Shown one piece after another: positions 14,522-42,263 of a stretch of DNA of 45,091 nucleotides. This stretch comes from Patescibacteria group bacterium (GTDB lineage: Bacteria; Patescibacteriota; Minisyncoccia; Phycocordibacterales; UBA918): contig JAZKFU010000010.1 in the NCBI GenBank assembly GCA_040386275.1, forward strand, positions 1 to 45,091, written 5' to 3'. Every line of letters starts with the position of its first letter. The stretch's first letter is position 1. The position numbers were made by a program, and so were the translations under genes. The notes beneath the pieces were generated by a model. That model worked only from the letters and a program-made list of their open reading frames with translations. It was not told where the DNA came from and searched no databases.

Positions 14522-14550
14522 TTGATTAATATTCATATTTGTTGTATAAG
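14522..14550 (+). promoter_or_regulatory. Candidate sigma70 promoter for the NUDIX gene
   Basis: TTGATT-17 nt-TATAAG, about 55 nt upstream of ATG 14606. Confidence 0.4.
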
Positions 14551-14605
14551 AACGTTAGATAAGAAGTGTCTAGATTCCCCCTACACCTTCAAAAGGTTCT
14601 CAAAG

Positions 14606-15328
14606 ATGTCAAAAAAGCGTCAAGTAATCCACCCAGACTGGCTTCCTGCCCATACACTCAACTATTTAAGAATAACGGAATTCACTCGTCCAGGTAACTC
14701 CTACTCTGACATTGTGTTCGGTCGAAGCAATGGGACGGACCTGGCTGTCAAAGCTCTGGCCATAGTTATTCCTGAACAAGTCGCGCACCTGTTTACGAGC
14801 AATATGTCTCTGGATGACATAATGCATGAACTGCTTAATCATCTCACACAGACGTTTGTGATTGTGATTCACCAGTACCGACCTATCACCTACCTACCCT
14901 GGAGTGATGATGGAAAAGATACTGAGGTCAAATACAATGTCCAAGTTGAGTTGCCTGGAGGCATTATCGAAGCGGGAGAACTAAAAGGTTTCGCCGCCAA
15001 GCGTGAGCTACTCGAAGAAGCCGGGTTATGGAACCATCGCATTCTGTGCGTGACGGATCTGTACTTTGGATTCTTGGCTAACTCGGCTGGTCATCAACAA
15101 GAACGGTACGGCATGAGTCTCATAATCGCCACTGGCGAAATAGGCTCGGTCACTGCCGAACAAAATGAGGAAGGAATTGTACGGGCGGAATTGATTCCCT
15201 TTAATCACGTTCACCGCCATCTTGATACCTTGGCAGAAAACGGATACCTGATTGAGTGGGCGGCGTACCTCGGAACCGACCGACTGGCTCGACTCTTGTT
15301 TGAGCATCACCTGTCGTCACTGTCGTAA
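14606..15328 (+). CDS. NUDIX hydrolase (ADP-ribose/ADP-sugar pyrophosphatase-like)
   Basis: Perfect Nudix box G-IIEAG-E-LKGFAAK-RELLEEAGL preceded by ELPG. AAAGG precedes ATG 14606. Confidence 0.8.
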   Translation: MSKKRQVIHPDWLPAHTLNYLRITEFTRPGNSYSDIVFGRSNGTDLAVKALAIVIPEQVAHLFTSNMSLDDIMHELLNHLTQTFVIVIHQYRPITYLPWSDDGKDTEVKYNVQVELPGGIIEAGELKGFAAKRELLEEAGLWNHRILCVTDLYFGFLANSAGHQQERYGMSLIIATGEIGSVTAEQNEEGIVRAELIPFNHVHRHLDTLAENGYLIEWAAYLGTDRLARLLFEHHLSSLS

Positions 15329-15347
15329 TCGCTTCTGGCAAAAAACT

Positions 15348-15372
15348 AAAGGCACCTCCCCAGGTGCCTTTT
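15348..15372 (+). terminator. Intrinsic terminator
   Basis: AAAGGCACCT-CCCC-AGGTGCCTTT-T just after the NUDIX stop. Confidence 0.8.
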
Positions 15373-15469
15373 CATATATTAAATTAACTAATATATTTAT
15401 TTACACAAAGGGATTTTAAATCTTTAAACCGGTAACATAAAACCTTGAAACTGAGTTACAATACTGTCT

Positions 15470-16738
15470 ATGTATCAAAAATCTATAAATTTTATTGAAC
15501 GTCGTTTTGGTATAGATGCCCATTACTTTGTTTCTAACAGTTTTTGGGTTGCTTGTAATCAAGCTACCACAATTGCAGGATCGCTCATGGTTACGGCTGT
15601 TTTTGCACACCTTCTCAGTGAAGAACTGTTTGGTAATTATAGATACTTGGTTGTGCTCGCCTCTTTGTTTTCCGTTGTTTCATTAAATAGTATCAGTCAA
15701 TCTGTATTACAAACCTCAAGCCAAGGTTACTTAGGCTACTACCAAAGCGCACTCAAGCTAGGGCTATTATCTAATCTAGGAACTACAGTCGCAGCTTTAC
15801 TTGTAGGTGGCTATTATTTGTATCAAAATAATCAATTGCTAGGGTATTGCTGCCTGGCTATAGCGATCTTGCAACCATTCATTAGTAATTATTTTACTAT
15901 TTTTAGTTTGTTAGCAGGTCAACAAAAATTCCGGGCTGTAGCAATATTTCAAACAATAAAAGTTATTATCATTACGCTCGGGAGTATTATTAGTGTTTTA
16001 TTAACTCATAATATATTTATAGTTTTTGTTACTTATTTAGCGCTTCAGTTAGTAACTAACATAATGGCACACTTATTTTTCAAACCTAATCCTAATGAAA
16101 TTAAAAAACCCATCTCTAAAGAAATAGAGAAAAAATATAATCATTTTGCTTTTCATTTAAGTGTTCAAAATGGAATTCTTTCGGCTGCAAACCGACTTGA
16201 CTCAATTATTGTATTTCAATTTCTGGGAGCGACTTCTCTTGCTATATATTCAATTGCTTTAATTGTACCTGATCAATTCAAAAGTTTGGTAAAAAATTTC
16301 TCCACGTTATTATTTCCTAAATATGTACACTACACCTCAGAACAACTCGTACGAAGTATTCCGGGCCGTAGTTTCCAATTATTTGTAATTCTCCTTTTTC
16401 TCACAGGACTCTATATTATTTCTGCACCATTTATAATAAATTGGATACTGCCAAAATACGCTTCGGCGATTATCTATACGCAGCTCCTCTCTCTCGCTAT
16501 TCCTTCATCTATTTTGTACATCGTTCAAAGTGCACTCAAATCACAAACTAATAATACGCAACTTTATTATATTCAATTTTCTCAAGCAGCTTTAAAAATT
16601 ATATTTGTTTTTGTTGGTATATATTTTTATGGACTTTGGGGTGCAGTAGCCGCTTATATTATTAGTTCGTATATAGAAGTTGCTTTATATTATGGAGTGT
16701 ATTTTGTTCAATCAATTCGAAAACACCCTACTGCTTAA
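15470..16738 (+). CDS. Wzx-type oligosaccharide flippase (MOP/PST family)
   Basis: About 12 TMs. LS.ELFGNY, RLDSII...FLGATSLAIYSIA..VPDQ, GLWGAVAA. TACAAT lies 7 nt upstream of the ATG. Confidence 0.85.
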   Translation: MYQKSINFIERRFGIDAHYFVSNSFWVACNQATTIAGSLMVTAVFAHLLSEELFGNYRYLVVLASLFSVVSLNSISQSVLQTSSQGYLGYYQSALKLGLLSNLGTTVAALLVGGYYLYQNNQLLGYCCLAIAILQPFISNYFTIFSLLAGQQKFRAVAIFQTIKVIIITLGSIISVLLTHNIFIVFVTYLALQLVTNIMAHLFFKPNPNEIKKPISKEIEKKYNHFAFHLSVQNGILSAANRLDSIIVFQFLGATSLAIYSIALIVPDQFKSLVKNFSTLLFPKYVHYTSEQLVRSIPGRSFQLFVILLFLTGLYIISAPFIINWILPKYASAIIYTQLLSLAIPSSILYIVQSALKSQTNNTQLYYIQFSQAALKIIFVFVGIYFYGLWGAVAAYIISSYIEVALYYGVYFVQSIRKHPTA

Positions 16739-17357
16739 CCATTACAACAAAATGCCCCAATGGAAGACGGGATGAAAGTGTGCGATATTTTCTTGAGATT
16801 TTATTTAAAAACATATCAGATCGTATCGCTATTCTTTTGAAATAATGTTTTAAAAAATCATTAGGCAAAGCACCAAAAATACACTGGTAACCAAGTGAAA
16901 AAAATCCTTCTCCCAAAGTAGTGATACTTGTAATTTTGCAATTATTTTTTTCAGCCAATCGTCTATACGCCGATTCGGTATACCGCAAATAGTCATCAGG
17001 AGAACCATGAATGTGGTGCATGAAAGGCGTAGCAAAAGCCAATGTGCCACCTGATTTAACACACCTCACAATTTCACTAAAGACCAAATTTGTTTCAAAA
17101 ATATGCTCTAACACATTAAGACAAATAGCATTATCAAATTGACTATCCTGTAACGGAAAAGGAGTTTCTATATCATGAAATAAGTTAGGCTCACAAGCTG
17201 GATCAAGGTTAACAACAAAAAAAGAATGAGTGCCTTTAATTAATTCGTGATATCCAGATTTAGTACTACCGCCAATATCTAAAATAGTTCCTGTTAACGT
17301 TAATTTTTCTACTTGAGCATATTCTCCTTCTCTAATTATAGATTTTATATTGGTCAT
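16728..17357 (-). CDS. Class I SAM-dependent methyltransferase
   Basis: ILDIGG, FDNAICLNVLEH, TPFMHHIHGSPDDYLRYT. Confidence 0.85.
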   Translation of the reverse strand: MTNIKSIIREGEYAQVEKLTLTGTILDIGGSTKSGYHELIKGTHSFFVVNLDPACEPNLFHDIETPFPLQDSQFDNAICLNVLEHIFETNLVFSEIVRCVKSGGTLAFATPFMHHIHGSPDDYLRYTESAYRRLAEKNNCKITSITTLGEGFFSLGYQCIFGALPNDFLKHYFKRIAIRSDMFLNKISRKYRTLSSRLPLGHFVVMVKQ

Positions 17358-18142
17358 TTTATTTCAGCGTTAAATAGATACCTGTCTGTTCTAATTTGAG
17401 TCCATTGCATTGTAAAGTCTTTAAACCAGTATTCAAATTCATCTTTTGTTACTGTACCTAAATCAAAGTGAATTTCACCAATATACGCTGTCGCATAATC
17501 CGCGGGATTGATTGATTTAAATATATCAAACTCTGCCCCTTCGACATCAAATTTAATTAAATCTGCTTTTGCTATGGCATTTTTTTCAAATAACTCAGTG
17601 AGTGTAATTAAGGGTACGGTAACTGAATGATGTGAATCTTTACGGGCCAAAACAGAATGCCCCAAACTACTTGAGCCGATGTTTAATTCTATTGTCCCAT
17701 TACTACCACCTACCGCAGCTTGAACAGGTTTTATATTCGCAATAGCTGCTGTGTGTTTTACTAATCGAGAATAGTTTTCAGGCGAAGGCTCTACTGCAAT
17801 AACAGTTGCATCAGGAAAACGGGCATTATAATAGAGCGTTGTATCACCAAAGTGAGCACCGAGGTCCACAATCACTTTTGGATTTTCTATTGGACACCAG
17901 GCATATTCATTATCAATAAACACTTCTCTTAACACTGCAATATCCATTGGGTATTTTAAGTAAAAGGTTATTTCCCTACTATTAAAAACTGAATTGAGTT
18001 TGATATCATTTTGTGACTGCTTGAACATTTTTCTAGACAAAATGAAGTAGTACAAAGTAGCCGCAATACGTAATTGCCTATAGAGTGATCCTCCGGACAA
18101 CAGTCGTGCAAGTGAAGGAATAATACTGAATAAAGTTGTCAT
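17354..18142 (-). CDS. FkbM family methyltransferase
   Basis: IVDLGAHFG, VEPSPEN, IKFDVEGAE, GEIH. Confidence 0.88.
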   Translation of the reverse strand: MTTLFSIIPSLARLLSGGSLYRQLRIAATLYYFILSRKMFKQSQNDIKLNSVFNSREITFYLKYPMDIAVLREVFIDNEYAWCPIENPKVIVDLGAHFGDTTLYYNARFPDATVIAVEPSPENYSRLVKHTAAIANIKPVQAAVGGSNGTIELNIGSSSLGHSVLARKDSHHSVTVPLITLTELFEKNAIAKADLIKFDVEGAEFDIFKSINPADYATAYIGEIHFDLGTVTKDEFEYWFKDFTMQWTQIRTDRYLFNAEIK

Positions 18143-18154
18143 ATAAATTAAGTA

Positions 18155-18919
18155 CTAGAATGGAGTATCTGAACTAAATGAAACTCCTAAGTCATTTCCA
18201 TTCTTAGAACTATCTTCATACGTACCGTCAAAATTCCAATACCCTTCTAAACCGACACCACTTTTAACTGCTTTGGGATTGGTGAATAATGATTGGATTT
18301 CATTAGCTTGCAATGACCGGCTCCAGATTTTAACTTCATCCAGTGCTCCATCATAAAAATTAGTTCGTGAATCTCGGCCACCAATAACAAAATCGGTATC
18401 AGTATCGGCAATACTGGTTGGCATGACATTTTCTAAAGATTTACCAATAGAATTACCGTTCACAAAAAGCTCTGCTGTTCCATTGGCTGCTGTATACACC
18501 ATGGCGACATGGAACCATTCCTGAGCGTTTTTACCATGAGGTAGTCGGTGTATACCATACCCGTACCCTCCATTTTGAGCATTTAACCCAATCCCAACAT
18601 CTCCATCTTCAAGATAAAAAAGGAATGAAGTTCGATCAATATCACTCCATTTTGAAACGAGGATTTGGTGTCCTGCTAAATTGTTTTGTTTCACCCATAA
18701 AGCAATTGTCATATCTCCAGTAATATCAAGACCCGTTTGTGCCTCATCACTAATGGCCACATATGAACGTTCAGTTCCGTCAAAGGTTAATGATGATTTG
18801 GTTGAAGCAGCTAATACATTATCAGGAATGATTACCCATGATAGGAGTCCTAACGCCACCACTGTCACCGGAGCAAGTACAAATTTATTAAAAATCAAAA
18901 CACTAAAATTTTTATACAT
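18155..18919 (-). CDS. Secreted or membrane-anchored LamG/concanavalin-A-like lectin domain protein
   Basis: N-terminal hydrophobic signal, then SLTFDG, MTIALWVK, WFHVAMVY, LFVNG, GALDEVKIWSRSL, GYWNFD...DSSKNGN. Start ATG 18919 lies 7 nt after TAAAAT. Confidence 0.85.
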   Translation of the reverse strand: MYKNFSVLIFNKFVLAPVTVVALGLLSWVIIPDNVLAASTKSSLTFDGTERSYVAISDEAQTGLDITGDMTIALWVKQNNLAGHQILVSKWSDIDRTSFLFYLEDGDVGIGLNAQNGGYGYGIHRLPHGKNAQEWFHVAMVYTAANGTAELFVNGNSIGKSLENVMPTSIADTDTDFVIGGRDSRTNFYDGALDEVKIWSRSLQANEIQSLFTNPKAVKSGVGLEGYWNFDGTYEDSSKNGNDLGVSFSSDTPF

Positions 18920-18980
18920 GAAGTTTATTTTAACAATTTTAAATAAGAGTACGAATGCCTTAAATATACCATAGGAAAAA

Positions 18981-20084
18981 TTACTCCAATAATGAATTAA
19001 ATTGCGCCACAATTATTGACTTTTCATATCGATTTTTCACCTCTCCCACTGTGGTTTGAACCTGTTTATATTCGATAGGATTTTCAAGCAAGATTGTTAT
19101 TTTCCTAGCTAACAAAGCTATTTCCCCAAACGGCACAACGTACTCTGACAGCGCTTCGGTAGCAGTCTCTCCTACTCCCCCTACATCAAACGCAACGAAT
19201 GGGACACTATAGGCCATGGCTTCAATCAAGGAATGGGGCGAACCTTCTTCTTCTGAAGGCATAATGAAAATATCGGCTGCTTGATATAATTCTTTTACCC
19301 GCGCTCGTGGTACAGACCCTAAAAAGTGTACCTGGTTACGCACTTCCGAACCATTAATTTCATTTTGCAATTCTTGTTGTAATGGACCGTCCCCCACTAC
19401 TACCATATGAACATTCGGGGCAGTTATTTGCTTCATTATCTCCGGTAAAAAATTTGCGCCTTTTCGTCTCGATAATTTATGTACAAATAATACAATCGGT
19501 GCCGTTTCGGGAATTGATAACTCGTCTCTCACAGTCTTTCGCAGTGACCTGTCTTTTGTTACTTCTTTGATATCAATCCAATTTGGTATCACCGTTACCT
19601 GAGAAGCGTTTAGACCATAGGTTTGGCAATACCCGGGAATGAGTGCCTCTGCACCCGTTATTAACCGAGTGATTAATCGATAGGCTACTTTTTGATACCA
19701 GTCCTCTTTCCAGGAACGTTTGTATAACCAGGGCATCCCGGCATTCCAGTAGAATACCTGACCTCCAAACAGTTTAGTAATTACTCCCGCTGAAATAGCA
19801 CTCAAAAATGAATAGTGCACATAAAACGTTTTAGTCCCTCGCCATCGCTCTCTTCCAATCAGCCATACATTTTCAAATATTCTCAATAAGGGAAATTTGT
19901 AACGCTGCATTATTGCCCAGGCTGGTATTGCCCCTGCGCTTGGCTTTTCAATTATTAACGTTAACGGTAACCCTTCATCTTCTTTAAGGGTACGGGCCAT
20001 TTCATACACATAATCCATATGTGTACCCGGAGTCACATGTTGCATGATAAAACAAACGGAAGATGCAGTATTGGATAATTTCAT
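18981..20084 (-). CDS. GT4 glycosyltransferase
   Basis: VIPNWID, LFVHKLSRRKG, VVGDGP, ADIFIMPSEEEGSPHSLIEAMA, DVGGV. Confidence 0.9.
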   Translation of the reverse strand: MKLSNTASSVCFIMQHVTPGTHMDYVYEMARTLKEDEGLPLTLIIEKPSAGAIPAWAIMQRYKFPLLRIFENVWLIGRERWRGTKTFYVHYSFLSAISAGVITKLFGGQVFYWNAGMPWLYKRSWKEDWYQKVAYRLITRLITGAEALIPGYCQTYGLNASQVTVIPNWIDIKEVTKDRSLRKTVRDELSIPETAPIVLFVHKLSRRKGANFLPEIMKQITAPNVHMVVVGDGPLQQELQNEINGSEVRNQVHFLGSVPRARVKELYQAADIFIMPSEEEGSPHSLIEAMAYSVPFVAFDVGGVGETATEALSEYVVPFGEIALLARKITILLENPIEYKQVQTTVGEVKNRYEKSIIVAQFNSLLE

Positions 20085-21467: not shown

Positions 21468-22424
21468 TTATACCTTTTTATACTCAAAATGACCAACAAT
21501 AGTTACCTCCTCCCAGGATTGCGTGGCTGGCTCTTCCCCGTTTAATTCTGACATGACCGCTGTTATAGGATTAACGCCAGCCAAAACCGTAATCGGTAAC
21601 CCACCAGATAACCGAGGGTTAATTTCAATTAGTTTTGGCACACCCTCACTATCAGCGCGCCATTGCAAACATATCGGACCGTAAAAACCAATGGCGTGAC
21701 AGACCTTATTTGACAACGCGATAAGTGATTCGTGCCTGACGGTTTTTCCTTTAATTGATATTCCTCCAGCCAACCCGATTCTCTCTCGAGGGACGGTATA
21801 GACCATCTGGCCATTTTTGGAACGATAGGCATCTACTGTCCACTCTGTTCCCGGCATAAATTTCATGACAATAAAATTCTCTTGATTTTCTTCGGAGTTT
21901 TTTAAAATATGTAATTCTTTTTTTGTCACTTTCACACACCCTCTACCACCTCGTCCTTGGCGTGGTTTAATAAATTGCACTTCATCAGCTAACCAGTCCT
22001 CGCTCCAATCTCGTAACAGGATAAATGGAATGGTGTTGTCAGGGATATGCACTTCGGCCCATTGGTACAGACCCAATTTATCATCTCCTAAGGTAATGGC
22101 GATTGAATCAGAAACCACCGTGAGACACGGAAGTGAATCTTTAAGTGAACTCACGAGCGGCAATTCTTCATGAACCGTAGGAATAAATAACGCTATCTGC
22201 TTTGCTGCAATGATATCGGTAAGCCAATTTGTATAGGCTGTGACCTCCGATACCCGCGGAGAAATTACAAATTCATTAACAAAAAAACGACCAGCCGAAA
22301 GAGCGTCAATATCAGCACCAATCACCCAAACATCTGGTTCGTTTTGTAATAACCGCGCCGCGTTAATGCCGGCCGGTCCACCCACTCCACTGACGAGAAT
22401 TATTTTTTTATTTGACTGAGGCAT
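21468..22424 (-). CDS. ATP-grasp ligase (carbamoyl-phosphate-synthase-large-chain-like, glycan-locus type)
   Basis: FIPTVHEEL, DDKL, FIKPRQGRGGRG, PGTEWTVD, VPRERI, LIEINPRLSGG. Confidence 0.88.
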   Translation of the reverse strand: MPQSNKKIILVSGVGGPAGINAARLLQNEPDVWVIGADIDALSAGRFFVNEFVISPRVSEVTAYTNWLTDIIAAKQIALFIPTVHEELPLVSSLKDSLPCLTVVSDSIAITLGDDKLGLYQWAEVHIPDNTIPFILLRDWSEDWLADEVQFIKPRQGRGGRGCVKVTKKELHILKNSEENQENFIVMKFMPGTEWTVDAYRSKNGQMVYTVPRERIGLAGGISIKGKTVRHESLIALSNKVCHAIGFYGPICLQWRADSEGVPKLIEINPRLSGGLPITVLAGVNPITAVMSELNGEEPATQSWEEVTIVGHFEYKKV

Positions 22425-24689: not shown

Positions 24690-24785
24690 ATGAGGAAAGT
24701 ATAGCATTTACGCTAAAGCCTGAAAAAGGACGTAACTAATTGCCCTGGCGTTGGGTACTAACGTAAATAGAGTATAATTACCACC

Positions 24786-25343
24786 ATGCGATTCACGATA
24801 ATCTCCCCGCTGTTCCCACCGGATACAGCCCCTCCTGCTCTCTATACTAAAGTGCTTTTAAGCAAACTTACGAGCACCACTAATTCCGTTGCGGGTGTTG
24901 TGTATGGTCACATACCAGAATCAGTACGGGAAGCTACTATCATACCCGTAGCTAAGCGGATGAATGTCAGTGGCCGCCTATTACAAATGTTTAAGACCAT
25001 ACGAAGTACAGTGAGTACGACAGATATGTATATAGTATGTAACGGTCCCTCAGTGGAGGTGCCGTTCTTAATTGCGCAACTCATTACCTCAAAGCCATAC
25101 ATCTTTATTGTTAACGATATACAAGCTGAACGTACATCAAGTCAATCGTGGTGGAAACATACACTCATGGTTCGCCTGAAAAAAAATGCCATCCGTACGT
25201 TTACGATTGCGGAAACAATTACACCCTACTGCCCTCCCGAAATTCATCCCCTCCTTCCTCATCCGACTGAAGCCGTAGAAAAATTCACTTCGCTATGGGA
25301 AATACACAGCAAAGAAATTTTAGATACCGCGTATGGAAAATAA
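24786..25343 (+). CDS. Stand-alone GT4 N-terminal (acceptor-binding)-like domain protein
   Basis: MRFTIISPLFPPDTAPPALYTKVL aligns with the N-terminus of the divergent GT4. No C-terminal Rossmann domain. Confidence 0.55.
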   Translation: MRFTIISPLFPPDTAPPALYTKVLLSKLTSTTNSVAGVVYGHIPESVREATIIPVAKRMNVSGRLLQMFKTIRSTVSTTDMYIVCNGPSVEVPFLIAQLITSKPYIFIVNDIQAERTSSQSWWKHTLMVRLKKNAIRTFTIAETITPYCPPEIHPLLPHPTEAVEKFTSLWEIHSKEILDTAYGK

Positions 25344-26433
25344 TACTACTCACACCTGGAATGAATATGTGGCCACGCAACTAAAGTACGTAACCGATAC
25401 GTTACTGCCACTTGGCTACACTCTTGATACTACCCAACCACATTTGCTCGGGGAACGTTTTTTGATGCAAGCAGTTACCACTACTGGTGGCCGAAAATTA
25501 ATACTACAAGGAAAGAATCAAGACAACCAAAAGGTTATTATCAAAGTCGCATCCGATACCCAAGGAAAAGATGAAATTAAGCATGAACGCCTCTGTCGTT
25601 CATTGATTAATTCACTCAATTTTGCCTATGGAGTATTTACTGCACCACAAGAACTTTTATTCATCGAAAAAGATGGTCGAGTCATCGCCATTCAAGAATT
25701 TATTGAACAGACGAGCACATTTTTAGAACGACCCCTCCTGGAACAATTTGATTTTGCTCTCCACTCATTAAAAGCACAAGCACAAGCTCAAATTACGACC
25801 CGCGGACATTTTCGTTCGATTAGTAACACCTTTGGCTACTATGAAGTAGCTGACTATTTCAAAAATGCCGACTTATTTATCGACACAATTTCATCAATGT
25901 TCAGTGATCAAACTATACTAAATACACTGACTACGGCCCGCAATTACTTGCATGAACACAAAGAACGGATTGCTCAATACACTGGATTTTTAACTCACAC
26001 TGATTTTGTACCCCATAATTTTCGCATCCGTGACAATACGGTCTATTTATTAGATTTCTCTTCTATACGTTTTGGAAACAAACATGAAAGCTGGGCGCGC
26101 TTTTTAAATTTTATGACGCTGTACAACCACCCTCTTGAACAGGCAGTACTAAAATACGCTGACCAGAATTTTTCACCGGAAGAACGAGAATCACTGCAAC
26201 TCATGCGTGTCTACCGACTACTGGAAATAATTGCTTATTATTGTACGACCACTAAAAATAGTACCGGCGATTTACTAACCCTTAATCAAAATAGAATATC
26301 GTTTTGGCATGAAGTGTTAATGGCCGAATTACAGAATCACCGAGTAGAGAGAGCCGTTGTATCTGCCTATCAATCGACGCGTGATGAGTTACGGAGCCAG
26401 GGTGAAAAAGAACGACAAAAAGGACTCCACTAA
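25333..26433 (+). CDS. APH/choline-kinase-like phosphotransferase
   Basis: VIIKVA, helix-C Glu (EIKHE), HTDFVPHN (HxDxxxxN) and LLDF. Confidence 0.75.
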   Translation: MENNTTHTWNEYVATQLKYVTDTLLPLGYTLDTTQPHLLGERFLMQAVTTTGGRKLILQGKNQDNQKVIIKVASDTQGKDEIKHERLCRSLINSLNFAYGVFTAPQELLFIEKDGRVIAIQEFIEQTSTFLERPLLEQFDFALHSLKAQAQAQITTRGHFRSISNTFGYYEVADYFKNADLFIDTISSMFSDQTILNTLTTARNYLHEHKERIAQYTGFLTHTDFVPHNFRIRDNTVYLLDFSSIRFGNKHESWARFLNFMTLYNHPLEQAVLKYADQNFSPEERESLQLMRVYRLLEIIAYYCTTTKNSTGDLLTLNQNRISFWHEVLMAELQNHRVERAVVSAYQSTRDELRSQGEKERQKGLH

Positions 26434-26966: not shown

Positions 26967-26967
26967 A

Positions 26968-28146: not shown

Positions 28147-28173
28147 ATATAATGGCTCAAGTATACAAAAGTT

Positions 28174-28208: not shown

Positions 28209-28217
28209 AGGTTTGAT

Positions 28218-28691: not shown

Positions 28692-28746
28692 TTCCTTCTG
28701 TGATGATATATACCGTAATCCAAACTATATTAGAACATAAAAAATG

Positions 28747-33489: not shown

Positions 33490-35073
33490 TTAAACTCCAG
33501 GTAGTAATGTCAGGAGATACCTTAGAATTTCTCGCAACCCCACAATGATTTTAACTGATTCCTCGGGAGTTAGATTTGCCAAATCTGCTTCATTTTTAGT
33601 TAGGTAGTCTATCAGATTACGAACTGACTGGATAAATGATTCTTTAGTTACCGTGAGTGGAGTTGAGGTTGAAGATGGACTGTAGAAATAACTTTTAGGT
33701 CGATCACCCACGCGGGTGGCGGAACTGCCACCCCCGCTGGGGTCGGCTTCGATGATAGCTGAGACGGTAAGATTTGCTTCAAGATTGGTGTCGGTGCGGG
33801 GATTCTGCGTTGATTCATCTGACCACTTCACAAAGCGGAAACCGGCATCGGGGACCACTTCTACTTCAGTACTGTCTTCACCATCAATAACGGTTTGGGT
33901 ACCTTGCCCAATCAGCGTAGCATTGAGTCCTGCTGTATATGAAATTGTGAAGCAGGGTGTTGAACCACCGTCGTTGATAATCCAGTTGTATGTAGTCACG
34001 AGGATATCGCGGGCTGCTTGCACTGTATCACAATACGGTGTACGAGAACTTGACTGACCAACACCGTACAGATTCATGTTATTTTGTAATGTTGGAAGTG
34101 CTGCCCAACGTTCGAGCGTATCAGAGTAGTTGAGAGTGGAAATGTTTGAGAGATCAAATATATAAGCAAAGTTAGTAATATTACGTATGTCCCAATTGCC
34201 CAGTGTCTGATCAAACGAGGAATTATAAAACATGCCATAGAGGGAATTAGTAACAGAGATGTCCCAGTCGTCAAGTGGTTGATTAAATGCAGTTGAAGCA
34301 AACATATCAGACATATACTGTACTGACGAAACATCCCAGTCATTGAGAGGTTGGTTGAACGCATTGATACCATAATTACCTCCGGAAAACATAGAATCCA
34401 TATCAGTCACATTCGAGACATCCCAGTTACTGAGAGATTGGTTGAAATTTAAGGCATCGCGAAACATTCTTCGCATAGTGGTTACCGCGGACACATCCCA
34501 GTTATTAAGAGGTTGGTTGAAAGCTATAGCACTGTCAAACATACTTTGCATGTCGGTCACATTCGAGACATCCCAGGTATTGAGAGGAGAGTTGAAATTT
34601 TCGGCTGCTTCAAACATCCCGGCAAGACTGGTTACATTCGATAAATCTGGAACATCAGTTGCATTAAAGGTAAGGTCATATACATATGAAAAGCTGTATT
34701 CGAGTGCGGTCCACACACTATTTCCCCACTGTTCAACGGTTCGAAATTTATTACGATTTGCTTGACCGCCAAAATTAACGCTCGTCCAATTACCTTTAAA
34801 GTCAACGCGGTATTCTCCCGCATACGGAAATGTAATTGTGGTAAGGCCAACCTGGCATGTATCAGTACCATTATTTGCTTCGTTGCCCACCTCCTCCCAG
34901 TAAACATCCTCACCATCATCACAGTCACCCAGCGTAATCGTTATAAATGTATCACTCCCTGTACTCCACGTAGTTGAAAACGCACCTGGTTCAATTGGAG
35001 CTGCAGATGCAAATGTACCCCACAGCATAAAAAATCCCATCATACATAAAACTTGCCGGGAGAGTAATTTCAT
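33490..35073 (-). CDS. Secreted surface protein with DUF285/BspA-like ~25-residue repeats and an InlB B-repeat-like domain
   Basis: Signal peptide. Repeats of MF..A..FNQPLN.WDVS.VT.M. ISYTAG...VVPDAGFRFVKWSD..TQNPRTD. Start ATG 35073 lies 6 nt after TATACT. Confidence 0.85.
   Translation of the reverse strand: MKLLSRQVLCMMGFFMLWGTFASAAPIEPGAFSTTWSTGSDTFITITLGDCDDGEDVYWEEVGNEANNGTDTCQVGLTTITFPYAGEYRVDFKGNWTSVNFGGQANRNKFRTVEQWGNSVWTALEYSFSYVYDLTFNATDVPDLSNVTSLAGMFEAAENFNSPLNTWDVSNVTDMQSMFDSAIAFNQPLNNWDVSAVTTMRRMFRDALNFNQSLSNWDVSNVTDMDSMFSGGNYGINAFNQPLNDWDVSSVQYMSDMFASTAFNQPLDDWDISVTNSLYGMFYNSSFDQTLGNWDIRNITNFAYIFDLSNISTLNYSDTLERWAALPTLQNNMNLYGVGQSSSRTPYCDTVQAARDILVTTYNWIINDGGSTPCFTISYTAGLNATLIGQGTQTVIDGEDSTEVEVVPDAGFRFVKWSDESTQNPRTDTNLEANLTVSAIIEADPSGGGSSATRVGDRPKSYFYSPSSTSTPLTVTKESFIQSVRNLIDYLTKNEADLANLTPEESVKIIVGLREILRYLLTLLPGV
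34180..34650 (-). repeat. Intragenic tandem ~75-nt coding repeats (about 6 units)
   Basis: Recurring plus-strand ACATCCCAG..TTGAGAGG..GGTTGAA encoding FNQPLNxWDVS. Confidence 0.8.
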
Positions 35074-35182
35074 ACCAGAAGTATACCAAAAAAAATTACT
35101 GATAATCATTTTTCCACCTTTTTTCTCAAAAGATTCGACTGGCTATAGTTCTCATGTGAGGGTGCATCACTAGTCTCAGAAA

Positions 35183-36130
35183 CTAGTTAATATAATACTG
35201 CAGAAACCACTGAGCAAAATTTGTTACACCCGTTTTAAAATCAGTCTCAGCTTGAAAGCCTAATAATTCTTTTGCTTTAGTGGTGTCAGCGTACGTTTCA
35301 AATACATCTCCCGTCTGCATCGGTAACATCCGTTTGGTAGTTGTCTTCCCTAATACTTCCTCTAACTGCGTAATAAAATTCAAGAGTTCTATCGGCTTTC
35401 CGTTTCCGAGATTTATAATTTCATACCCGAGTGGCGTATGCACGGCGGCAATAAAACCACGCACAATATCACCTACATACGTAAAATCTCGACGTAATTT
35501 TCCTTCATTATAGACATCAATTGGCTCACCCTTCATGATTGCGTCGGCAAATTTTAGCATCGCCATATCCGGCCTACTCCACGGTCCGTAGACGGTAAAA
35601 AACCGTAGGCACGTTGTTTCTATCTGATACTGATGGTAGTAGGTGTGAGCAATCATTTCGGCGGCTCGTTTGGTAGCAGCATACACCGATACCGGTTTGT
35701 CTGCCGCTTCCGTCTCTTTAAAAGGAGCGGGAGTGGTAGTGCCGTAGGCAGAAGAGGTAGAGGCAAATACCATCCGTTTAATTCCTGTTTCGCGCATCAC
35801 TTCAAATAACGTTTGTGTTCCCAAGACATTAGCCTCAATATACGAGGCTGGAGCTTCGATGGAGTAACGCACTCCCGCTTGTCCCGCGAGATGGCAGACA
35901 ACATCAAAAGAGTGCCTGGTGCACAACGACCGCAATGCTTCAATGTCGGTAATATCAATTTCTTCTACTGTTACCTGCGGTAACAACGCAGCCACGCGGG
36001 CTCGCTTGAGCGCAACATCATAGTACTGATTAAAATTATCAATGACGACCACCTCATGCCCTTCTTTTATAAGTTGCGCCGCCAACGTACTGCCAATAAA
36101 TCCTGCTCCACCGGTAACAAGTAATTTCAT
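35183..36130 (-). CDS. UDP-glucuronate 4-epimerase-like extended SDR
   Basis: VTGGAGFIGS, HLAGQAGVRYS, YAATK, LRFFTVYGPWSRPDMA, RDFTYV.D, MQTGDV. Start ATG 36130. Confidence 0.9.
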   Translation of the reverse strand: MKLLVTGGAGFIGSTLAAQLIKEGHEVVVIDNFNQYYDVALKRARVAALLPQVTVEEIDITDIEALRSLCTRHSFDVVCHLAGQAGVRYSIEAPASYIEANVLGTQTLFEVMRETGIKRMVFASTSSAYGTTTPAPFKETEAADKPVSVYAATKRAAEMIAHTYYHQYQIETTCLRFFTVYGPWSRPDMAMLKFADAIMKGEPIDVYNEGKLRRDFTYVGDIVRGFIAAVHTPLGYEIINLGNGKPIELLNFITQLEEVLGKTTTKRMLPMQTGDVFETYADTTKAKELLGFQAETDFKTGVTNFAQWFLQYYIN

Positions 36131-36198: not shown

Positions 36199-36228
36199 AA
36201 AAGGACAGGCATGTATAGTGCCTGCCCC
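36199..36228 (-). terminator. Intrinsic terminator
   Basis: Minus strand GGGCAGGCA-CTATACA-TGCCTGTCC-TTTT. Confidence 0.7.
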
Positions 36229-36235
36229 TCCCGTA

Positions 36236-36442
36236 CTACACCCGATAACTCAGGGTGCCATTAACCCAGTGCACCCCGACGTAACGACGTTCCGCAAGGA
36301 TGGTTTTTGCAAACGTGAGCCAGACAAACTCGTCTACAGGTAGCGCGCGCTCCTTCTCTAGCCGAGCCTCTAATTTTTCTACCCCCTCTAACAGATCACC
36401 GTCCGGCATGGTTTCCATTTGTTTTTGAAGAGAAATAAACAT
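36236..36442 (-). CDS. Small hypothetical protein (68 aa)
   Basis: TG-TATAAT upstream, GAGGTG SD before the ATG, and a terminator after the stop. Confidence 0.7.
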   Translation of the reverse strand: MFISLQKQMETMPDGDLLEGVEKLEARLEKERALPVDEFVWLTFAKTILAERRYVGVHWVNGTLSYRV

Positions 36443-36517
36443 AATTCACCTCATTCATGAACATTCGATAATTATTATACAACACTTTAAGCTTCAGGTC
36501 GAAGCGTACTGTTTCAA

Positions 36518-36760
36518 TTATTCCGTTTTAGTATTCGCAAAAAGATTTTGAGTAGTCTCTACAAACGTATCGCTAACTCGTTCCCCATTCCCGCGATCAA
36601 TTTCTCTAAAGTATTGGGCGCGTCGCAACGCGTAGCCTAGCAAGATTAAAACCACACCGATACCAACATACGCATACTGTTTCCAGGCCGACGGTATACC
36701 GAGATATGGAAGAACCACTAACAGAATACCTACTAAAAATGTCAGAGTACCTTTGCTCAT
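36518..36760 (-). CDS. Small two-TM membrane protein
   Basis: Two hydrophobic helices (LTFLVGILLVVLPYLG and YVGIGVVLILLGYAL). TATACT lies 7 nt upstream of the ATG. Confidence 0.75.
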   Translation of the reverse strand: MSKGTLTFLVGILLVVLPYLGIPSAWKQYAYVGIGVVLILLGYALRRAQYFREIDRGNGERVSDTFVETTQNLFANTKTE

Positions 36761-37504: not shown

Positions 37505-37597
37505 TAAATTACTTTACCACAATTTTTAAAAAAGTATAGAGTACTGTATGATACAACTCGAGTACTATAGCCCCAGATTCAACCAAGGAGTTCTATC

Positions 37598-37888
37598 ATG
37601 TCAGACCCCGCCATTCCCCTGCTCGCAGCCTATACCCGGGCACTCGTACATCAAAAAATTCCCGAGACCGAACAGCAGCTGGCTCTACTGTTTGCAAAAG
37701 ATTTTCTGCAGCGTGTTGTCGATGAGCATGGTCGGCTGAGTTTCGGCGAGCTGAAATCAGCCAGCCTGAACGACCTCAACCGACAGCTGAGCACACACAG
37801 CGAGATGCTTATGCAAATGCTTACTGACCCTGAGCAAGGTTTTGGCTTCATTAACAGCCAAGGTCGACCAATTCTGATTGAACGGTAA
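37598..37888 (+). CDS. Hypothetical protein (96 aa)
   Basis: AAGGAG SD before the ATG and a terminator after the stop. Codons rich in CTG/AAC/GAG. Confidence 0.7.
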   Translation: MSDPAIPLLAAYTRALVHQKIPETEQQLALLFAKDFLQRVVDEHGRLSFGELKSASLNDLNRQLSTHSEMLMQMLTDPEQGFGFINSQGRPILIER

Positions 37889-37901
37889 GACATGAACCAA
37901 A

Positions 37902-37936
37902 AACCCGCGCCAAAAGCGCGGGTTCATTTTTATTTT
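37902..37936 (+). terminator. Intrinsic terminator
   Basis: AACCCGCGC-CAAAA-GCGCGGGTT followed by CATTTTTATTTT. Confidence 0.8.
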
Positions 37937-37953
37937 GTAAATAATTTTAAAAA

Positions 37954-38080
37954 CTAAAGTTAATGTAAACTCTTCAGATACGAGGCGGGCAAAGAAAATT
38001 ATGTGAGCCGTACTCCTTGTACGGTGAACGTAATTTTGCTGTAGCCCAACAAAGTAGCTGATAGTTTACATTAACTTTAG
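37954..38080. repeat. Palindromic element, copy 1 (RPE/MITE-like)
   Basis: Perfect 18-bp terminal inverted repeat CTAAAGTTAATGTAAACT/AGTTTACATTAACTTTAG. Inner stems GGGC/GCCC, AAAATTATGT/ACGTAATTTT and CCGTAC/GTACGG. Confidence 0.8.
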
Positions 38081-39167: not shown

Positions 39168-39171
39168 GTAA

Positions 39172-39194
39172 CAAAAACAACGCTAACGCGTTGT
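39172..39194 (-). terminator. Riboswitch expression-platform terminator
   Basis: Minus strand ACAACGC-GTTA-GCGTTGT-TTTT. Confidence 0.75.
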
Positions 39195-39207
39195 ATCCAG
39201 GAGTCAG

Positions 39208-39334
39208 ATATCTTTCACTGTCCTAATGACAGTGTTGAACGTCGCACCTTGTTTATAAAAACAGGTTGCGGATGAAGTGGTGAATGTTGAAAACATTCGT
39301 CGGGTCAATTCCCTTCTTCATGCTCTGGATACAA
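39208..39334 (-). ncRNA. SAM-I (S-box) riboswitch aptamer upstream of metK
   Basis: Minus strand GTATCCAGAG..GAAGGG-AATTGA-CCC-GACGA..CGCAACC..AGGTGCG-ACGTTCAA-CACTGTC..GACAGTG-AAAGATAT. P1-P4, the kink-turn and the TTGA/TCAA pseudoknot can all be assigned. Confidence 0.85.
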
Positions 39335-39385
39335 ATATTAAGTTGTCCGTATAGAAACTATGTCTATCTTAAAAAAGTTACTTAT

Positions 39386-39412
39386 AAAACAGGCGGCCTT
39401 GCGGTCGCCTGT
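39386..39412 (-). terminator. Intrinsic terminator
   Basis: Minus strand ACAGGCGACC-GCAA-GGCCGCCTGT-TTT (GNRA loop). Confidence 0.8.
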
Positions 39413-39424
39413 ATGTCTTGTTCG

Positions 39425-40075
39425 TTAACTGCGTACACCCATTTTTATGAGCTGATCAGATGCACTTGCTTTGCGAGCCAGTGCTTCAGCTTCAGCATAT
39501 AATCGTGCCCGATTTTTGTCACTCCGGTGAAGCAAATTCGCAATGGCTCGATTGACGCGAGCGGCTTGAGCAAAGTCTGCTTGTAACGCGGTAGCACTTG
39601 CTAGCATCTCAAGTTTAAATACAACATGCTCATCAATCTTACGACCGCTCAATTTATGAGCATGTATCATCAGGAACGCTCGGGTGTGCGGGTTACATTC
39701 TTCTCCTGCCGTAACCCGCGCGTGAGCATGCTGAAGAATATCATGACGCTTCTCACGAAGAGACATAAGAATAGGATTGCCAAACCGACTCCAGATTGCT
39801 GAAACTACATCAATGTCATCCAGTGACAGTGATTTAAAGTTGTTGGCCCGGCCTGCAGTAGTAGCCAAATCCATTGCCCTATTGGAGCACCACAGCAAGC
39901 GAATAACGTACCATACGCGTCCGCTTTTAATTTCCGCAAATGCCCTTGTCGCGGCTGAATAATAAACCGATGCAAGTCTTACATGATCTGATGGTGTTTT
40001 GCGGCTCCGATCAAAGCGCGCTGCAGCAATCTCAATCGCACCTTTATGACCCCAGTAGTCACCTTCAAAACTCAT
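39425..40075 (-). CDS. Hypothetical alpha-helical (TPR-like) protein
   Basis: 216-aa Ala/Arg-rich helical ORF (RLASVYYSAA, AQAARVNRAIANLL). GAGGA SD upstream, terminator downstream. Confidence 0.65.
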   Translation of the reverse strand: MSFEGDYWGHKGAIEIAAARFDRSRKTPSDHVRLASVYYSAATRAFAEIKSGRVWYVIRLLWCSNRAMDLATTAGRANNFKSLSLDDIDVVSAIWSRFGNPILMSLREKRHDILQHAHARVTAGEECNPHTRAFLMIHAHKLSGRKIDEHVVFKLEMLASATALQADFAQAARVNRAIANLLHRSDKNRARLYAEAEALARKASASDQLIKMGVRS

Positions 40076-40132
40076 GATGCATCCTCTGTTAGAGTGTGTA
40101 GTACGGTCCTTGACTATAAAACTATAAATAAT

Positions 40133-41446
40133 CTACTTTGTCAATTCTGACGCCACCGCGGTCACCTCCCCCGCCCCAATAATTACGATAACAGATGGTT
40201 CTGATTGATTGAGTGATTCACGAATGGTCTGAGCAATTCCTGAAGCTGTTTGCATCACAATTGCTTGCGTACCCTTCGCTGTTATCGCCTCCGCTAATTG
40301 TTCACTACTTACACCCGAAACATTTTCTTCGCGCGCTGCATAAATTGGCAAGAGGTACACCTGATCGGCTTTAGTATAGGCAGTTACAAAATCGGCAAAT
40401 AATTCTTTGGTCCGTGAGTACGTATGTGTCTGCGTGACCACAATTAATTTTCGATTGGGATACAGTTCTCGCGCACCTTGTATGGTGACTCTAATTTCAG
40501 TCGGATGATGTCCATAGTCATCATACACCGGTGTGCCCAGGACATCTCCCTTAAATTCAAATCGGCGCCACGTTCCCGCAAAATTTTCTAACGCTTCATT
40601 AATCACCGGGCGTTCTATATCTAAAAATTCTCCCACGGCTGTTGCTGCGGCCGCGTTCATACGCGTGTGTAGTCCTGGTTGCTTGAGTTTAATTGTGAGA
40701 TCAAGCGATTTGGTGTAATCAATAACAGTCGCTTCCACCCTTTCTAGTATCGGCGCAATTGCAGGGTCAGTGGCAGCAGTGATAATCGCCCCCGTCTCGG
40801 GAACTTTTAACGCGAGCTCACGAAAGGCATGCTGGACATCAGCCAAGTCTTTGTAGTAGTCCACGTGCTCATACTCTACATTGGTGATAACAAGCACATC
40901 TGGATTGAGGCTCAAAAAATCTCGTTTGTATTCACACGCTTCGATAATCGCATACTTACTTTTACCAGGACGGAAGTTACTCCCCGTCTTACTCCGCAAT
41001 GACCCGACAATCACTGTCGGATCAAGACCCGCCTCTTCTAACACGTCAGCAAGCATGGCTGTTGTCGTAGTCTTTCCGTGCGTCCCGGCAACCGCAATTA
41101 AATAGTACTCATTAGCAATAAGCCCCAGCGCATCAAAATAATTCATCATCGGTACCCCAAGCGCGCGAGCCGCGACCATCTCCTCTTGATCGTGTGCCAT
41201 TGCCTCGGTGTACACAATAAGTTCGAGGTCTCGCCTCGAACTTAGGTTGGAGGCTGATTGGGTGGGGAAAAATTGTACGCCTTCTGTAACGAGCGCATCG
41301 GTGATGGGACTAGCAGCCCGGTCACTGCCCGAAACCGTTTTTCCGTCATGGAGGAAAAACCGTGCCAGCGCGGACATACCGATACCGCCGATACCAATAA
41401 AGTGAATATTCTGTACGGTGCTTATATTTATAGAGTGATTTGACAT
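40133..41446 (-). CDS. murC: UDP-N-acetylmuramate--L-alanine ligase
   Basis: HFIGIGGIGMSALA, SGSD, AGTHGKTTTT, EACEY, GTWRRFE, DDYGHHPTEI, HTYSRT, IYAARE. Confidence 0.93.
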   Translation of the reverse strand: MSNHSINISTVQNIHFIGIGGIGMSALARFFLHDGKTVSGSDRAASPITDALVTEGVQFFPTQSASNLSSRRDLELIVYTEAMAHDQEEMVAARALGVPMMNYFDALGLIANEYYLIAVAGTHGKTTTTAMLADVLEEAGLDPTVIVGSLRSKTGSNFRPGKSKYAIIEACEYKRDFLSLNPDVLVITNVEYEHVDYYKDLADVQHAFRELALKVPETGAIITAATDPAIAPILERVEATVIDYTKSLDLTIKLKQPGLHTRMNAAAATAVGEFLDIERPVINEALENFAGTWRRFEFKGDVLGTPVYDDYGHHPTEIRVTIQGARELYPNRKLIVVTQTHTYSRTKELFADFVTAYTKADQVYLLPIYAAREENVSGVSSEQLAEAITAKGTQAIVMQTASGIAQTIRESLNQSEPSVIVIIGAGEVTAVASELTK

Positions 41447-41505
41447 AGTAGCGGTATCATATAGTATCAAATTTAGACGTACACAACCATAAAAGGAATA
41501 CCACC

Positions 41506-42222
41506 ATGCCTATCGCTATTGCCGTTGACCCCACCAAAGTGCTCCGGACGGAAGGCTTCATTATTGCGACCTTTGATGGCAAAAATGCGGCTTTAGCGAG
41601 CGCCATTGCGTTTACCCATCAGCCTAAACACGCCATCAAACACCTGGTTTCTCCCCCGAGCAGAAGGGGCGAACTCGGTTTTAAGGAAGTCGTGACTAAC
41701 CCACGTGACTACAATATCAGCGCTGACGGTATTGTAGTGACCAAGAACCGGGCGGCCGCGATGTACAGCCGGGATTGTCCGATTACGTTTCTGATGGACT
41801 CAACCAAGAAAATAGGTGTCCTCCTACACTGCGGGCGACCCGCCATGACACCGACGCAAGGAGAGAGCAGTCGCACACATACCATTGTGACGGCAGGCCT
41901 AGAGACACTCAAAGCGTACGGGAGTGACGTTAAGGACATCAGTGCCTACATCACGGCCGGCATTTGCGCCCAGTGCTTTACGCACAACCTGGAAACCGAC
42001 CAAGAACTACTCTTTCCCTTCATGGCCTACTACCCCCAGTTCGTTAACCAGAAAACTGGTGATCTGGACTTGATTGGTATGATTACCGCGCAACTGGTAG
42101 AAGCCGGCGTGGCCAAAACCAACATCCACCACGATGAGATGTGCACCAAGGAACATGAGGGACTTGCAAGCAAACGTGGTGGTGATTCAGACAGTAACTT
42201 AGTGAAAGCCTATGTGGTATAA
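41506..42222 (+). CDS. Divergent YfiH/PgeF (laccase-domain, purine nucleoside phosphorylase-like) protein
   Basis: ADGIV, SRDCPI (cf. TADC.P), LHCGR (cf. HAGWR), ITAGICAQCF (cf. IGP.I..CCY), DLIGMI..QL..AGV, CT. AAGGA SD upstream. Confidence 0.7.
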   Translation: MPIAIAVDPTKVLRTEGFIIATFDGKNAALASAIAFTHQPKHAIKHLVSPPSRRGELGFKEVVTNPRDYNISADGIVVTKNRAAAMYSRDCPITFLMDSTKKIGVLLHCGRPAMTPTQGESSRTHTIVTAGLETLKAYGSDVKDISAYITAGICAQCFTHNLETDQELLFPFMAYYPQFVNQKTGDLDLIGMITAQLVEAGVAKTNIHHDEMCTKEHEGLASKRGGDSDSNLVKAYVV

Positions 42223-42263
42223 AAAATGCGCAGCCGATACATAATCGGCTGCGTTTCTTTTTT
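42221..42263. terminator. Bidirectional intrinsic terminator
   Basis: AAAAAAT-GCGCAGCCGAT-ACATA-ATCGGCTGCGT-TTCTTTTTT between convergent genes. Confidence 0.8.

Follow-up and report, generated by a model that had tools for sequence, protein, structure and literature searches.

Solitary genes with Shine-Dalgarno motifs and intrinsic terminators in a patescibacterial lineage whose recovered 16S rRNAs lack the anti-Shine-Dalgarno

Why should a few solitary genes, set among leaderless core genes, each carry a Shine-Dalgarno (SD)-like motif in front and a strong hairpin behind? The question arises from contig C10 of a Patescibacteria group bacterium (JAZKFU010000010.1; 45,091 nucleotides, the whole of which is called the window here), one of 11 contigs in a 982-kb genome that is 99.9% complete (G000). 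The window contains mur genes, rsmI, metK, and long runs of glycosyltransferase, epimerase, and flippase genes, with the minus strand dominant; relatives retrieved via MurC carry the labels Patescibacteria, Paceibacteria, or "Kaiserbacteria" metagenome-assembled genomes (MAGs). An initial annotation singled out six genes: a NUDIX gene; a cupin gene; two small open reading frames (ORFs) of 68 and 96 residues (orf68 and orf96); and genes for a TPR-like and a PgeF-like protein. Sequence reading and scans bear out that each has an SD-like motif 4–9 nt before its start and a strong hairpin 4–20 nt past its stop, and that three of the six lie on the plus strand, opposing the dominant one.

The favored answer, to which we assign a probability of roughly 0.6, is that the six genes belong to a class found across the genome and the genus, with about 40 members in each genome (4–5% of genes): autonomous, dispensable, SD-led single-gene units that occupy slots between conserved genes, and in which the SD is functional.

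A genome-wide class of SD-led, terminator-closed genes

Genes were called with a caller of our own (dicodon log-odds, greedy overlap resolution, and a conservative start rule that shifted 100 of 888 starts); the 888 genes of G000 cover 86% of the genome. An SD 5-mer or 6-mer is an exact match of at least five or six bases to the canonical UAAGGAGGUGA, and a strong terminator is a hairpin of −10 kcal/mol or stronger followed by a T tail. Decoys for start signals were 1565 internal ATGs; controls for terminators were 400 interior positions. Ortholog breadth was judged from two whole relatives, which as related genomes are not independent samples: the sister genome G041 (median protein identity 98.5%) and G007, from the same genus (65%). 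G085 is also a sister genome.

Of 882 gene ends, 203 have a strong terminator behind them (interior controls: 8 of 400), and such terminators are concentrated behind genes with an SD. Among SD 5-mer genes 39/64 have one, versus 164/824 of the others (odds ratio [OR] 6.3, p 1e-11); for 6-mers the count is 24 of 32. SD 5-mer genes are mostly solitary (45/64), and within solitary genes a terminator closes 77% of 44 SD genes, compared with 32% of 150 leaderless genes and 34% of 231 others. SD genes also differ from the rest in composition and size: G+C content at third codon positions (GC3) is 0.44 versus 0.395, dicodon score 0.22 versus 0.31, and median length 155 versus 250 aa. When only accessory genes are compared, SD genes have a GC3 of 0.46 against 0.37–0.39 (p 5e-8), and here too they are shorter and score lower in dicodon usage.

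The same genes are narrowly distributed. Homologs in G007 were found for 6 of 39 SD-plus-terminator genes, versus 595 of the remaining 849; in the sister genome, the numbers are 25/39 and 712/849. Among proteins of at most 150 aa, a G007 homolog exists for 2 of 21 SD-plus-terminator genes and for 88 of 135 others, and in a logistic model that controls for length, GC3, and dicodon score, both SD and terminator are still negative predictors of homolog presence. The association between SD and terminator recurs in G007 (OR 3.4, p 8e-5) and in G041 (OR 4.4). Tested reciprocally, 10 of 24 SD-plus-terminator genes of G007 have a G000 homolog, versus 596/784. Selection can also be made blind to the SD, by taking genes that lack a G007 homolog, have a terminator, come first in their unit, and are not leaderless: an SD 5-mer precedes 30 of these 73 genes (the unbiased accessory set), versus 8 of 222 conserved ones, and GGA precedes 53% versus 9%.

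SD, terminator, solitary position, GC3 and dicodon usage, and narrow breadth co-segregate across the genome and in a second one, as expected of the separate class of self-contained units that the initial annotation had proposed. Lack of a genome-wide association had been set beforehand as grounds for dropping that proposal; the association is present, both with the terminator and with narrow distribution. The accompanying statement that the window's few hairpins are its only clear intrinsic terminators does not single out the class, as 164 genes without an SD have one too (203/888 genome-wide) and the window is merely terminator-poor.

Beyond the window, 12 of 36 class members match a Pfam family above cut-off and 24 do not; those that can be named are GH43, nitroreductase, TauE, and pilin-like proteins, two GNAT and two NUDIX proteins, and an EEP nuclease/phosphatase. 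A phage or defense origin found no support in ten class ORFans (0/10 matches in PHROGs, 0/10 in PADLOC). SD 5-mers precede 64/888 genes against 83/1565 decoys, barely above the decoy rate; 6-mers precede 32/888 against 15/1565. By positional backgrounds, about 40 of the SDs in G000 are real, and those of secA and RNase III are likely chance matches (the secA motif sits in an upstream hairpin). The spacer between SD and start is C-rich in the class (29% C and 21% T at −5 to −1, versus 17–20% C and 36–39% T elsewhere), and class leaders often read ACCACC or ACC before the ATG.

Native genes start in another way. In 317 of 887 upstream regions the motif TAnnnT begins between −15 and −12, compared with some 28 regions per background position, and a −10 score of at least 5 at leaderless distance occurs in 284/888 genes versus 33/1565 decoys. 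The logo of 226 aligned leaderless boxes is an extended −10 element, TGnTAtAaT (T at −3 in 60%, G at −2 in 62%), in which a −35 element was undetected. Leaderless status is common to orthologs at 65% identity (OR 7.3, with 121 pairs leaderless in both genomes), and terminator status likewise is shared among 569 reciprocal-best pairs (OR 5.2); SD status is shared in 0/14 and 0/23 of these pairs. The description of core genes as terminator-free needs correction: the hairpin of the PgeF-like gene also closes the convergent gene 42262–42699, and a core operon therefore does have a terminator.

SD motifs in a lineage without the anti-SD

Rfam searches of relatives recovered 20 16S rRNA 3′ tails, 12 from the genus and 8 from other families of the order, and CCUCC is present in none of them (0/20). 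In the genus, the tail after helix 45 is GGAUUAAUUCCAAUU or a variant, and G000 presumably shares it. Such a loss has precedent: in the accessible text of Tsurumaki 2022 (PMC9297842), the anti-SD motif is given for only 48% of Parcubacteria. Leaders of the unbiased accessory set nevertheless fit the canonical tail (−5.8 kcal/mol, versus −3.7 for shuffled leaders; p 1e-6) and not notably the lineage's own (−3.1 versus −2.6). Nor are motifs complementary to that tail enriched before starts (GGAAU, 6 versus 5; UGGAA, 8 versus 11).

By eye, the anti-SD-less tail could itself form a small hairpin (L241, the G007 16S 3′ end; L240, L242, L245–L261), the arms of which seem to co-vary: UUCC..GGAA in the genus, f15, and f11; UUCA..UGAA in f9, f12, f4, and f8.

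What else might read an SD? Searches of G000 gave no match for CsrA, a possible GGA reader, or for bS21. An S1 protein with four domains is present (387 aa, C3:145825–146832). A trans-acting RNA bearing the canonical anti-SD CACCUCCU yielded no conserved candidate when intergenic DNA of G000, G007, and G041 was searched for the exact 8-mer; the matches, by our reading, are mostly reverse complements of SDs on the opposite strand. A separate locus on contig C2 (about 22160–22350; L312 660–850) has a 17-aa ORF with both AGGAG and an anti-SD-like GAUCACCUC ahead of it. The complementary AAAGGAGGUGAUCC follows about 40 nt downstream, and beyond it come a Cys-rich 29-aa frame and a terminator. The locus, 73% conserved in G099 and not found in G041 or G007, resembles a switch that sequesters an SD, although the genome is one without anti-SD.

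The SD of class genes outlasts sequence divergence. Among homologs at 26–73% identity, an SD of at least five bases is kept in 18 of 25 and a terminator in 24 of 25, whereas the base rate for the SD is 23/555. PgeF homologs at only 27–43% identity have such an SD in 5 of 7 distinct genomes. In a family of 430-aa ORFans, all six homologs (32–72% identity) keep a GGAGG-type motif at a constant spacing of 5–6 nt, while the rest of the leader has changed. This family occurs in 7 of 127 other genomes of the genus. Across the phylum there is at most 1 credible match in 400, and a set of 5.8 billion proteins includes 15 relatives; being practically restricted to the genus, the family shows no sign of an outside reservoir. 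Judged from these comparisons, selection probably acts on the SD in this lineage, although its ribosome is unable to pair with the motif classically. The persistence in 18 of 25 diverged homologs makes simple fossils of a donor genome unlikely, and a purely acquisition-based account, such as the initial annotation entertained, is weakened by SDs in old, diverged homologs of a genus whose 16S lacks the anti-SD.

Units and slots in the window

Turnover of whole units is observed when the window is aligned with the sister genome. Five segments cannot be aligned, and two of them are exactly the orf96 unit (37543–37985) and the TPR-like unit (39383–40109). The murC-metK slot of the sister is occupied by a 182-aa ORF that is unrelated, is preceded by GAGGAG, and has a terminator of its own; homology resumes directly after the terminator stem. 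In the rsmI-metK slot, the sister carries an allele 43% identical between flanks that are 97–100% identical. Both sites, checked in relatives as the initial annotation had advised for such positions, behave as slots with alternative occupants. The backbone murD-murC-rsmI-orf80 is kept in many relatives, and murC adjoins rsmI in some of them. Genome-wide, G000 and the sister differ by 110 unshared segments totaling 252 kb.

The annotation had suggested delivery of single genes by an unknown insertion route. Breakpoints lie at unit edges inside conserved flanks, and the genome has one tyrosine recombinase match (PF00589), on another contig (C8:127893–128405), a picture that fits homologous recombination instead. 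Terminator hairpins were also considered as a mobile repeat family, and rejected: 134 are singletons, and clusters of two to four are mostly both strands of one bidirectional hairpin. Those of the SD class are 20–52 nt long, 26 of 39 being singletons, with no common sequence family.

The six units vary around one layout. An SD of at least five bases is present in four (cupin, orf68, orf96, and PgeF-like), and the NUDIX and TPR-like genes have a 4-mer only. Hairpins of the five genes that our caller called range from −14.3 to −23.7 kcal/mol, with 5–9 T within an 11-nt tail window; some tails are interrupted, such as TTAAACTTTT behind the cupin gene. GC3 is 0.60 for PgeF, 0.53 for orf68, 0.50 for NUDIX, 0.46 for cupin, and 0.38 for the TPR-like gene, with a window mean of 0.389. 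No Pfam family matched orf68, orf96, or the TPR-like protein.

The PgeF-like unit (41440–42254, plus strand) is the best defined. A promoter-like TTGACA-16-TAGTAT (41440–41467) precedes the SD AAGGA (41493–41497) and the ORF (41506–42222), whose residues 66–218 match Cu-oxidase_4 (PF02578) with 61.1 bits against a cut-off of 22.9, the PgeF/YfiH family. Its bidirectional terminator (42228–42254; −19.4 kcal/mol) is the one shared with the convergent gene. PgeF is present in 12 of 24 same-genus genomes sampled, and occupies the same murD-murC slot in L007, L014, L015, L017, and L021. We take it to be the peptidoglycan editing factor, a role that its position beside murC and murD would fit.

In the orf96 unit (37543–37985, plus strand), the SD AAGGAG (37585–37590) precedes an ORF (37598–37888) that our own caller missed. 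The terminator (37902–37924), found by the tool scan only, begins 13 nt after the stop and has nine pairs, seven of them G-C, and the tail CATTTTTATT; it also lies 153 nt past the stop of metK, which is on the other strand. G041 and G085 carry a homolog that is 43% identical (E 1.6e-20), with AGGAG and its own terminator, between flanks 97–99% identical. By this comparison orf96 is a real gene; it was found in 1 of 127 other genus genomes.

The TPR-like unit (39383–40109, minus strand) has an SD-like GAGGA (40082–40086), in which the exact canonical match is a 4-mer (AGGA or GAGG), an ORF (39425–40075), and a terminator (39389–39412; −14.5 kcal/mol). Of 127 other genus genomes, 2 encode the protein; SD and terminator are retained in 3 of 3 diverged homologs. 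Its Atlas model resembles TPR proteins at a TM score of 0.45–0.57, so the TPR identity is only a lead.

The orf68 unit (36199–36502, minus strand) runs from a promoter-like TCGACC-17-TATAAT (36474–36502) through the SD GAGGTG(A) (36447–36452) and the ORF (36236–36442) to a terminator (36199–36231; −18.6 kcal/mol, 4 nt after the stop) that the tool scan missed because its tail has only four T. Homologs occur in 2 of 127 other genus genomes, and one at 31% identity retains GGAGG and a similar hairpin. The copy in the sister genome (L304, G085) is 96% identical and contains an in-frame TAA; there, orf68 seems dispensable or decaying.

The cupin unit (28177–28698, minus strand) comprises the SD GAAGGA (28693–28698), an ORF (28218–28685), and a terminator (28177–28208; −23.7 kcal/mol, 9 nt after the stop). 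SD and hairpin are as first described; the start is not, because the ATG at 28685 is better than the GTG at 28691 (ORF 28218–28691) and places GAAGGA 7 nt upstream. The Cupin_2 match is sub-threshold (20.4 versus a cut-off of 27.2). Homologs occur in 5 of 127 other genus genomes, all five with a terminator. The NUDIX unit (14592–15371, plus strand) comprises an SD-like AAAGG (14592–14596) that shares only the 4-mer AAGG with the canonical SD, an ORF (14606–15328; Pfam NUDIX, 27.7 bits), and a terminator hairpin (15348–15371; −14.3 kcal/mol, 19 nt after the stop); homologs occur in 2 of 127. In G078 and G079, cupin and NUDIX homologs travel together, 5–7 kb apart on one contig. The NUDIX unit lies within a 13.6-kb segment (5487–19122) for which the sister genome has no counterpart. 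This glycan-synthesis block and another of 4.7 kb (24707–29391) cannot be aligned with the sister, in which other genes are about 98% identical, and look like a hypervariable surface-polysaccharide locus.

Four other features of the window deserve mention. The 539-aa gene p539 (33490–35194, minus strand) has AGGTG before its start and no terminator, and sets the window apart from the sister genome by a single-gene replacement. The 80-aa gene orf80 (36518–36760, minus strand) offers a contrast: solitary, leaderless (TATACT 7 nt before the ATG), conserved, and without a strong terminator. Its homologs, 28–100% identical, adjoin rsmI in 14 of 20 relatives' loci (L007–L026). The metK leader (39177–39335, minus strand) was described as a riboswitch; it holds a divergent SAM-I match (39205–39335) below the gathering threshold (37.7 versus 44.4 bits, E 3e-6) and a terminator-like hairpin (39177–39194), and at gathering thresholds Rfam has no match in the window. 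Because both elements lie in a 400-nt leader, metK is leadered, yet it has no SD. Finally, an HD-domain ORF (26430–27128, minus strand; HD_4, 61.6 bits) overlaps the 3′ part of a glycosyltransferase gene (26968–28146) by about 160 nt; our caller dropped it, and its true start is probably further downstream.

Explanations and known systems

A model for these units can be outlined. Each would consist of an extended −10 promoter, a leader of 17–44 nt in most cases (as predicted), a small GC3-rich ORF with a canonical SD 5–8 nt before its start, and an intrinsic terminator about 10 nt past its stop. Units would sit in intergenic slots between conserved genes that are themselves leaderless, with a −10 box ending 6–9 nt before the ATG. 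Related genomes gain, lose, and swap whole units, as observed at the slots, and exchange may proceed by homologous recombination in the conserved flanks; the single tyrosine recombinase match and the lack of a common hairpin family point that way. The terminator behind an inserted unit would insulate its neighbors, since read-through would bury the next AUG inside a transcript and make a leaderless-type start unusable. A leader with an internal start signal, for its part, would free the unit from exact promoter spacing. Because the 16S tail lacks CCUCC and the SD is kept across deep divergence, we infer that the SD is functional and read by some other element.

There is a bolder version, less likely than not: Parcubacteria without an anti-SD may still have a second way of starting translation, one that depends on the SD, belongs to the flexible genome alone, and is served by an SD receptor, either a protein or some RNA that is not the 16S tail. 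Translation initiation would then divide core genes (leaderless) from accessory genes (SD-led), and the two sets could be controlled independently.

Several points weigh against the favored explanation. The class is not exclusive: terminators also close the 164 non-SD genes, most accessory genes are leaderless or of other types, and p539, SD-like and without a terminator, runs counter to a strict SD-plus-terminator rule. NUDIX and cupin lie in larger variable glycan islands rather than single-gene slots, and just 5 of 30 single-gene internal variable segments are SD-plus-terminator, so the class is enriched among variable genes but is not the bulk of the variable genome. About 20–45 of the 64 SD 5-mers may be chance, given the decoy rate of 5.3% and the positional background. 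Genes were called with a simple ORF/dicodon caller whose start picker prefers starts with a signal, and several SD-plus-terminator genes with G007 orthologs (the nitroreductase and pilin-like genes, for example) are probably mis-started leaderless genes. The strict SD is kept in only one of five cupin homologs and one of two NUDIX homologs. Between G000 and G041, substitutions number 2/68 in SDs and 27/412 in flanks, a difference that is not significant (p 0.41; 12 pairs). The G000 assembly contains no 16S gene, the missing anti-SD being taken from relatives, and promoters, transcript ends, insulation, and the role of the SD in translation are all predicted.

How do the alternatives fare? The most durable is that the genes are recent imports from anti-SD-bearing organisms, with SD and terminator as functionless, decaying leftovers. 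The leaders do match the canonical 16S tail and not that of the lineage, GC3 and dicodon usage are atypical even among accessory genes, individual genes are patchily distributed (1–5 of 127 genus genomes), and potential donors exist, as about half of Parcubacteria keep the anti-SD in the portion of the Tsurumaki account available here (PMC9297842). Leftovers should decay, however, and the SD is still there in 18 of 25 diverged homologs, within a genus in which 12 of 12 16S tails lack the anti-SD. PgeF is an old resident (the same murD-murC slot in at least five relatives, and half of the genus genomes sampled), the 430-aa family is practically a genus-only one, and class terminators resemble those of native genes. 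Moreover, in G000 and G007 alike, class GC3 exceeds the baseline of the respective host by about 0.05, which one shared foreign pool would not produce. On this balance, import without function is unlikely.

Still less probable is a post-transcriptional regulon, in which an RNA-binding protein or small RNA controls the accessory genes jointly by using the GGA-rich motif of their leaders as its operator, and the likeness of that motif to an SD is incidental. The GGA excess in the unbiased accessory set and a ribosome that offers the motif no partner would suit this idea, and the C2 locus, by pairing its anti-SD-like GAUCACCUC with AAAGGAGGUGAUCC, suggests that exposure of the motif matters. Against it, the motifs match UAAGGAGGUGA in many different registers (AAGGA, GGAGG, GAGGTG, GGTGA), a behavior typical of pairing with a long complementary RNA rather than of binding by a protein at one fixed sequence; they stand at the classical 5–8 nt from the start; and the searches for CsrA and for a conserved intergenic RNA with CACCUCCU (above) came up empty. 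A regulon in the sense of the initial annotation fares no better: upstream regions of class genes, compared by eye without a motif finder, have ordinary extended −10 boxes and no common extra motif.

It is highly improbable that spurious small ORFs, together with chance purine runs near neighbors' terminators, merely mimic a class. Low dicodon scores (0.04–0.28), short lengths, at least one SD inside a hairpin (that of secA), and a start picker that favors signals are what such an artifact would predict, but homologs at 26–73% identity conserve length, SD spacing, and terminator; a third of the members outside the window have Pfam domains above cut-off (12/36); and the association holds within solitary genes, within length classes, and in two other genomes. 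The initial annotation's host-directed or stage-specific epibiont effectors scarcely survive: despite many small, narrowly distributed ORFans and the pure speculation that a canonical SD would suit a host ribosome with a normal anti-SD, class proteins are not enriched in hydrophobic N-termini (36% versus 39% of others) or membrane segments (31% versus 46%) by crude hydropathy, the ten ORFans match no phage or defense family, no host is known, and the named members (NUDIX, GNAT, cupin, PgeF, GH43, TauE, and EEP) are housecleaning-type enzymes.

SD-led autonomous units thus remain the favored explanation. The SD is kept down to about 27% protein identity and marks almost only dispensable, strain-variable genes. 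If it is functional, its recognition by a non-classical element would add a new component to bacterial translation initiation. If not, it is a simple sequence marker of recently mobile genes in these uncultured lineages, one that helps to separate core from flexible genes and to call gene starts in metagenomes of the candidate phyla radiation (CPR). Either way, a leaderless core with insulated SD-led units suggests why terminators matter in leaderless genomes, and the layout makes testable predictions for metatranscriptomics.

Known systems resemble these units in part. Like integron cassettes, they are lone ORFs, promoter-poor or self-contained, with strain-variable content and a 3′ element that forms a hairpin; unlike them, they are solitary, form no array, and have neither a common attC-like sequence nor an adjacent integrase. 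Phage morons (Hendrix and colleagues), as defined in the accessible text of PMC2920897, come closer: single extra genes between conserved neighbors, with their own promoter and terminator, odd base composition, and hotspots at which relatives carry different units. The units here have promoter-like boxes, terminators, a GC3 above that of other accessory genes (0.46 versus 0.37–0.39), and slots with alternative occupants. They are, however, chromosomal, flanked by murC, murD, metK, and rsmI, with ORFans that PHROGs does not match (0/10), and they also differ in translation start, SD-led versus leaderless, which lies outside the moron concept as that text gives it.

With respect to start signals, the nearest relatives are the genomes of GeneMarkS-2 group C, such as Mycobacterium tuberculosis. 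As far as the excerpted description goes (PMC6028130), first genes there have a −10 box 6–8 nt upstream of the start, and a second set of starts has an SD that far upstream; about 60% of operons, as well as internal genes, use the SD, and the ribosome has an anti-SD. In G000, by contrast, SD 5-mers precede 64 of 888 genes, 45 of these 64 are solitary, and the SD is not shared among orthologs (0/14). It precedes only 8 of 222 conserved non-leaderless first genes, and the 16S of the lineage lacks the anti-SD.

The other comparison is with bacteria that have lost the anti-SD (Lim 2012; Amin 2018, PMC6107228; Nikolaeva 2020, PMC7782861; Tsurumaki 2022, PMC9297842). The missing CCUCC is already published for Parcubacteria (2022, PMC9297842, in the text available), and the likeness to the bacteria of these accounts, so far as their accessible parts describe them, is plain: no CCUCC tail and no genome-wide SD signal. 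In the same parts, organisms without anti-SD are also without recognizable SD (PMC6107228, PMC7782861, PMC9297842). A minority class that keeps a conserved, canonical SD goes unmentioned in those portions, and no report of SD-bearing accessory genes was found in the sections consulted of the literature on anti-SD-less or leaderless CPR genomes. G000 and G007, at 65% protein identity, are in this respect an exception to the accepted corollary that organisms lacking the anti-SD lack SD sites as well.

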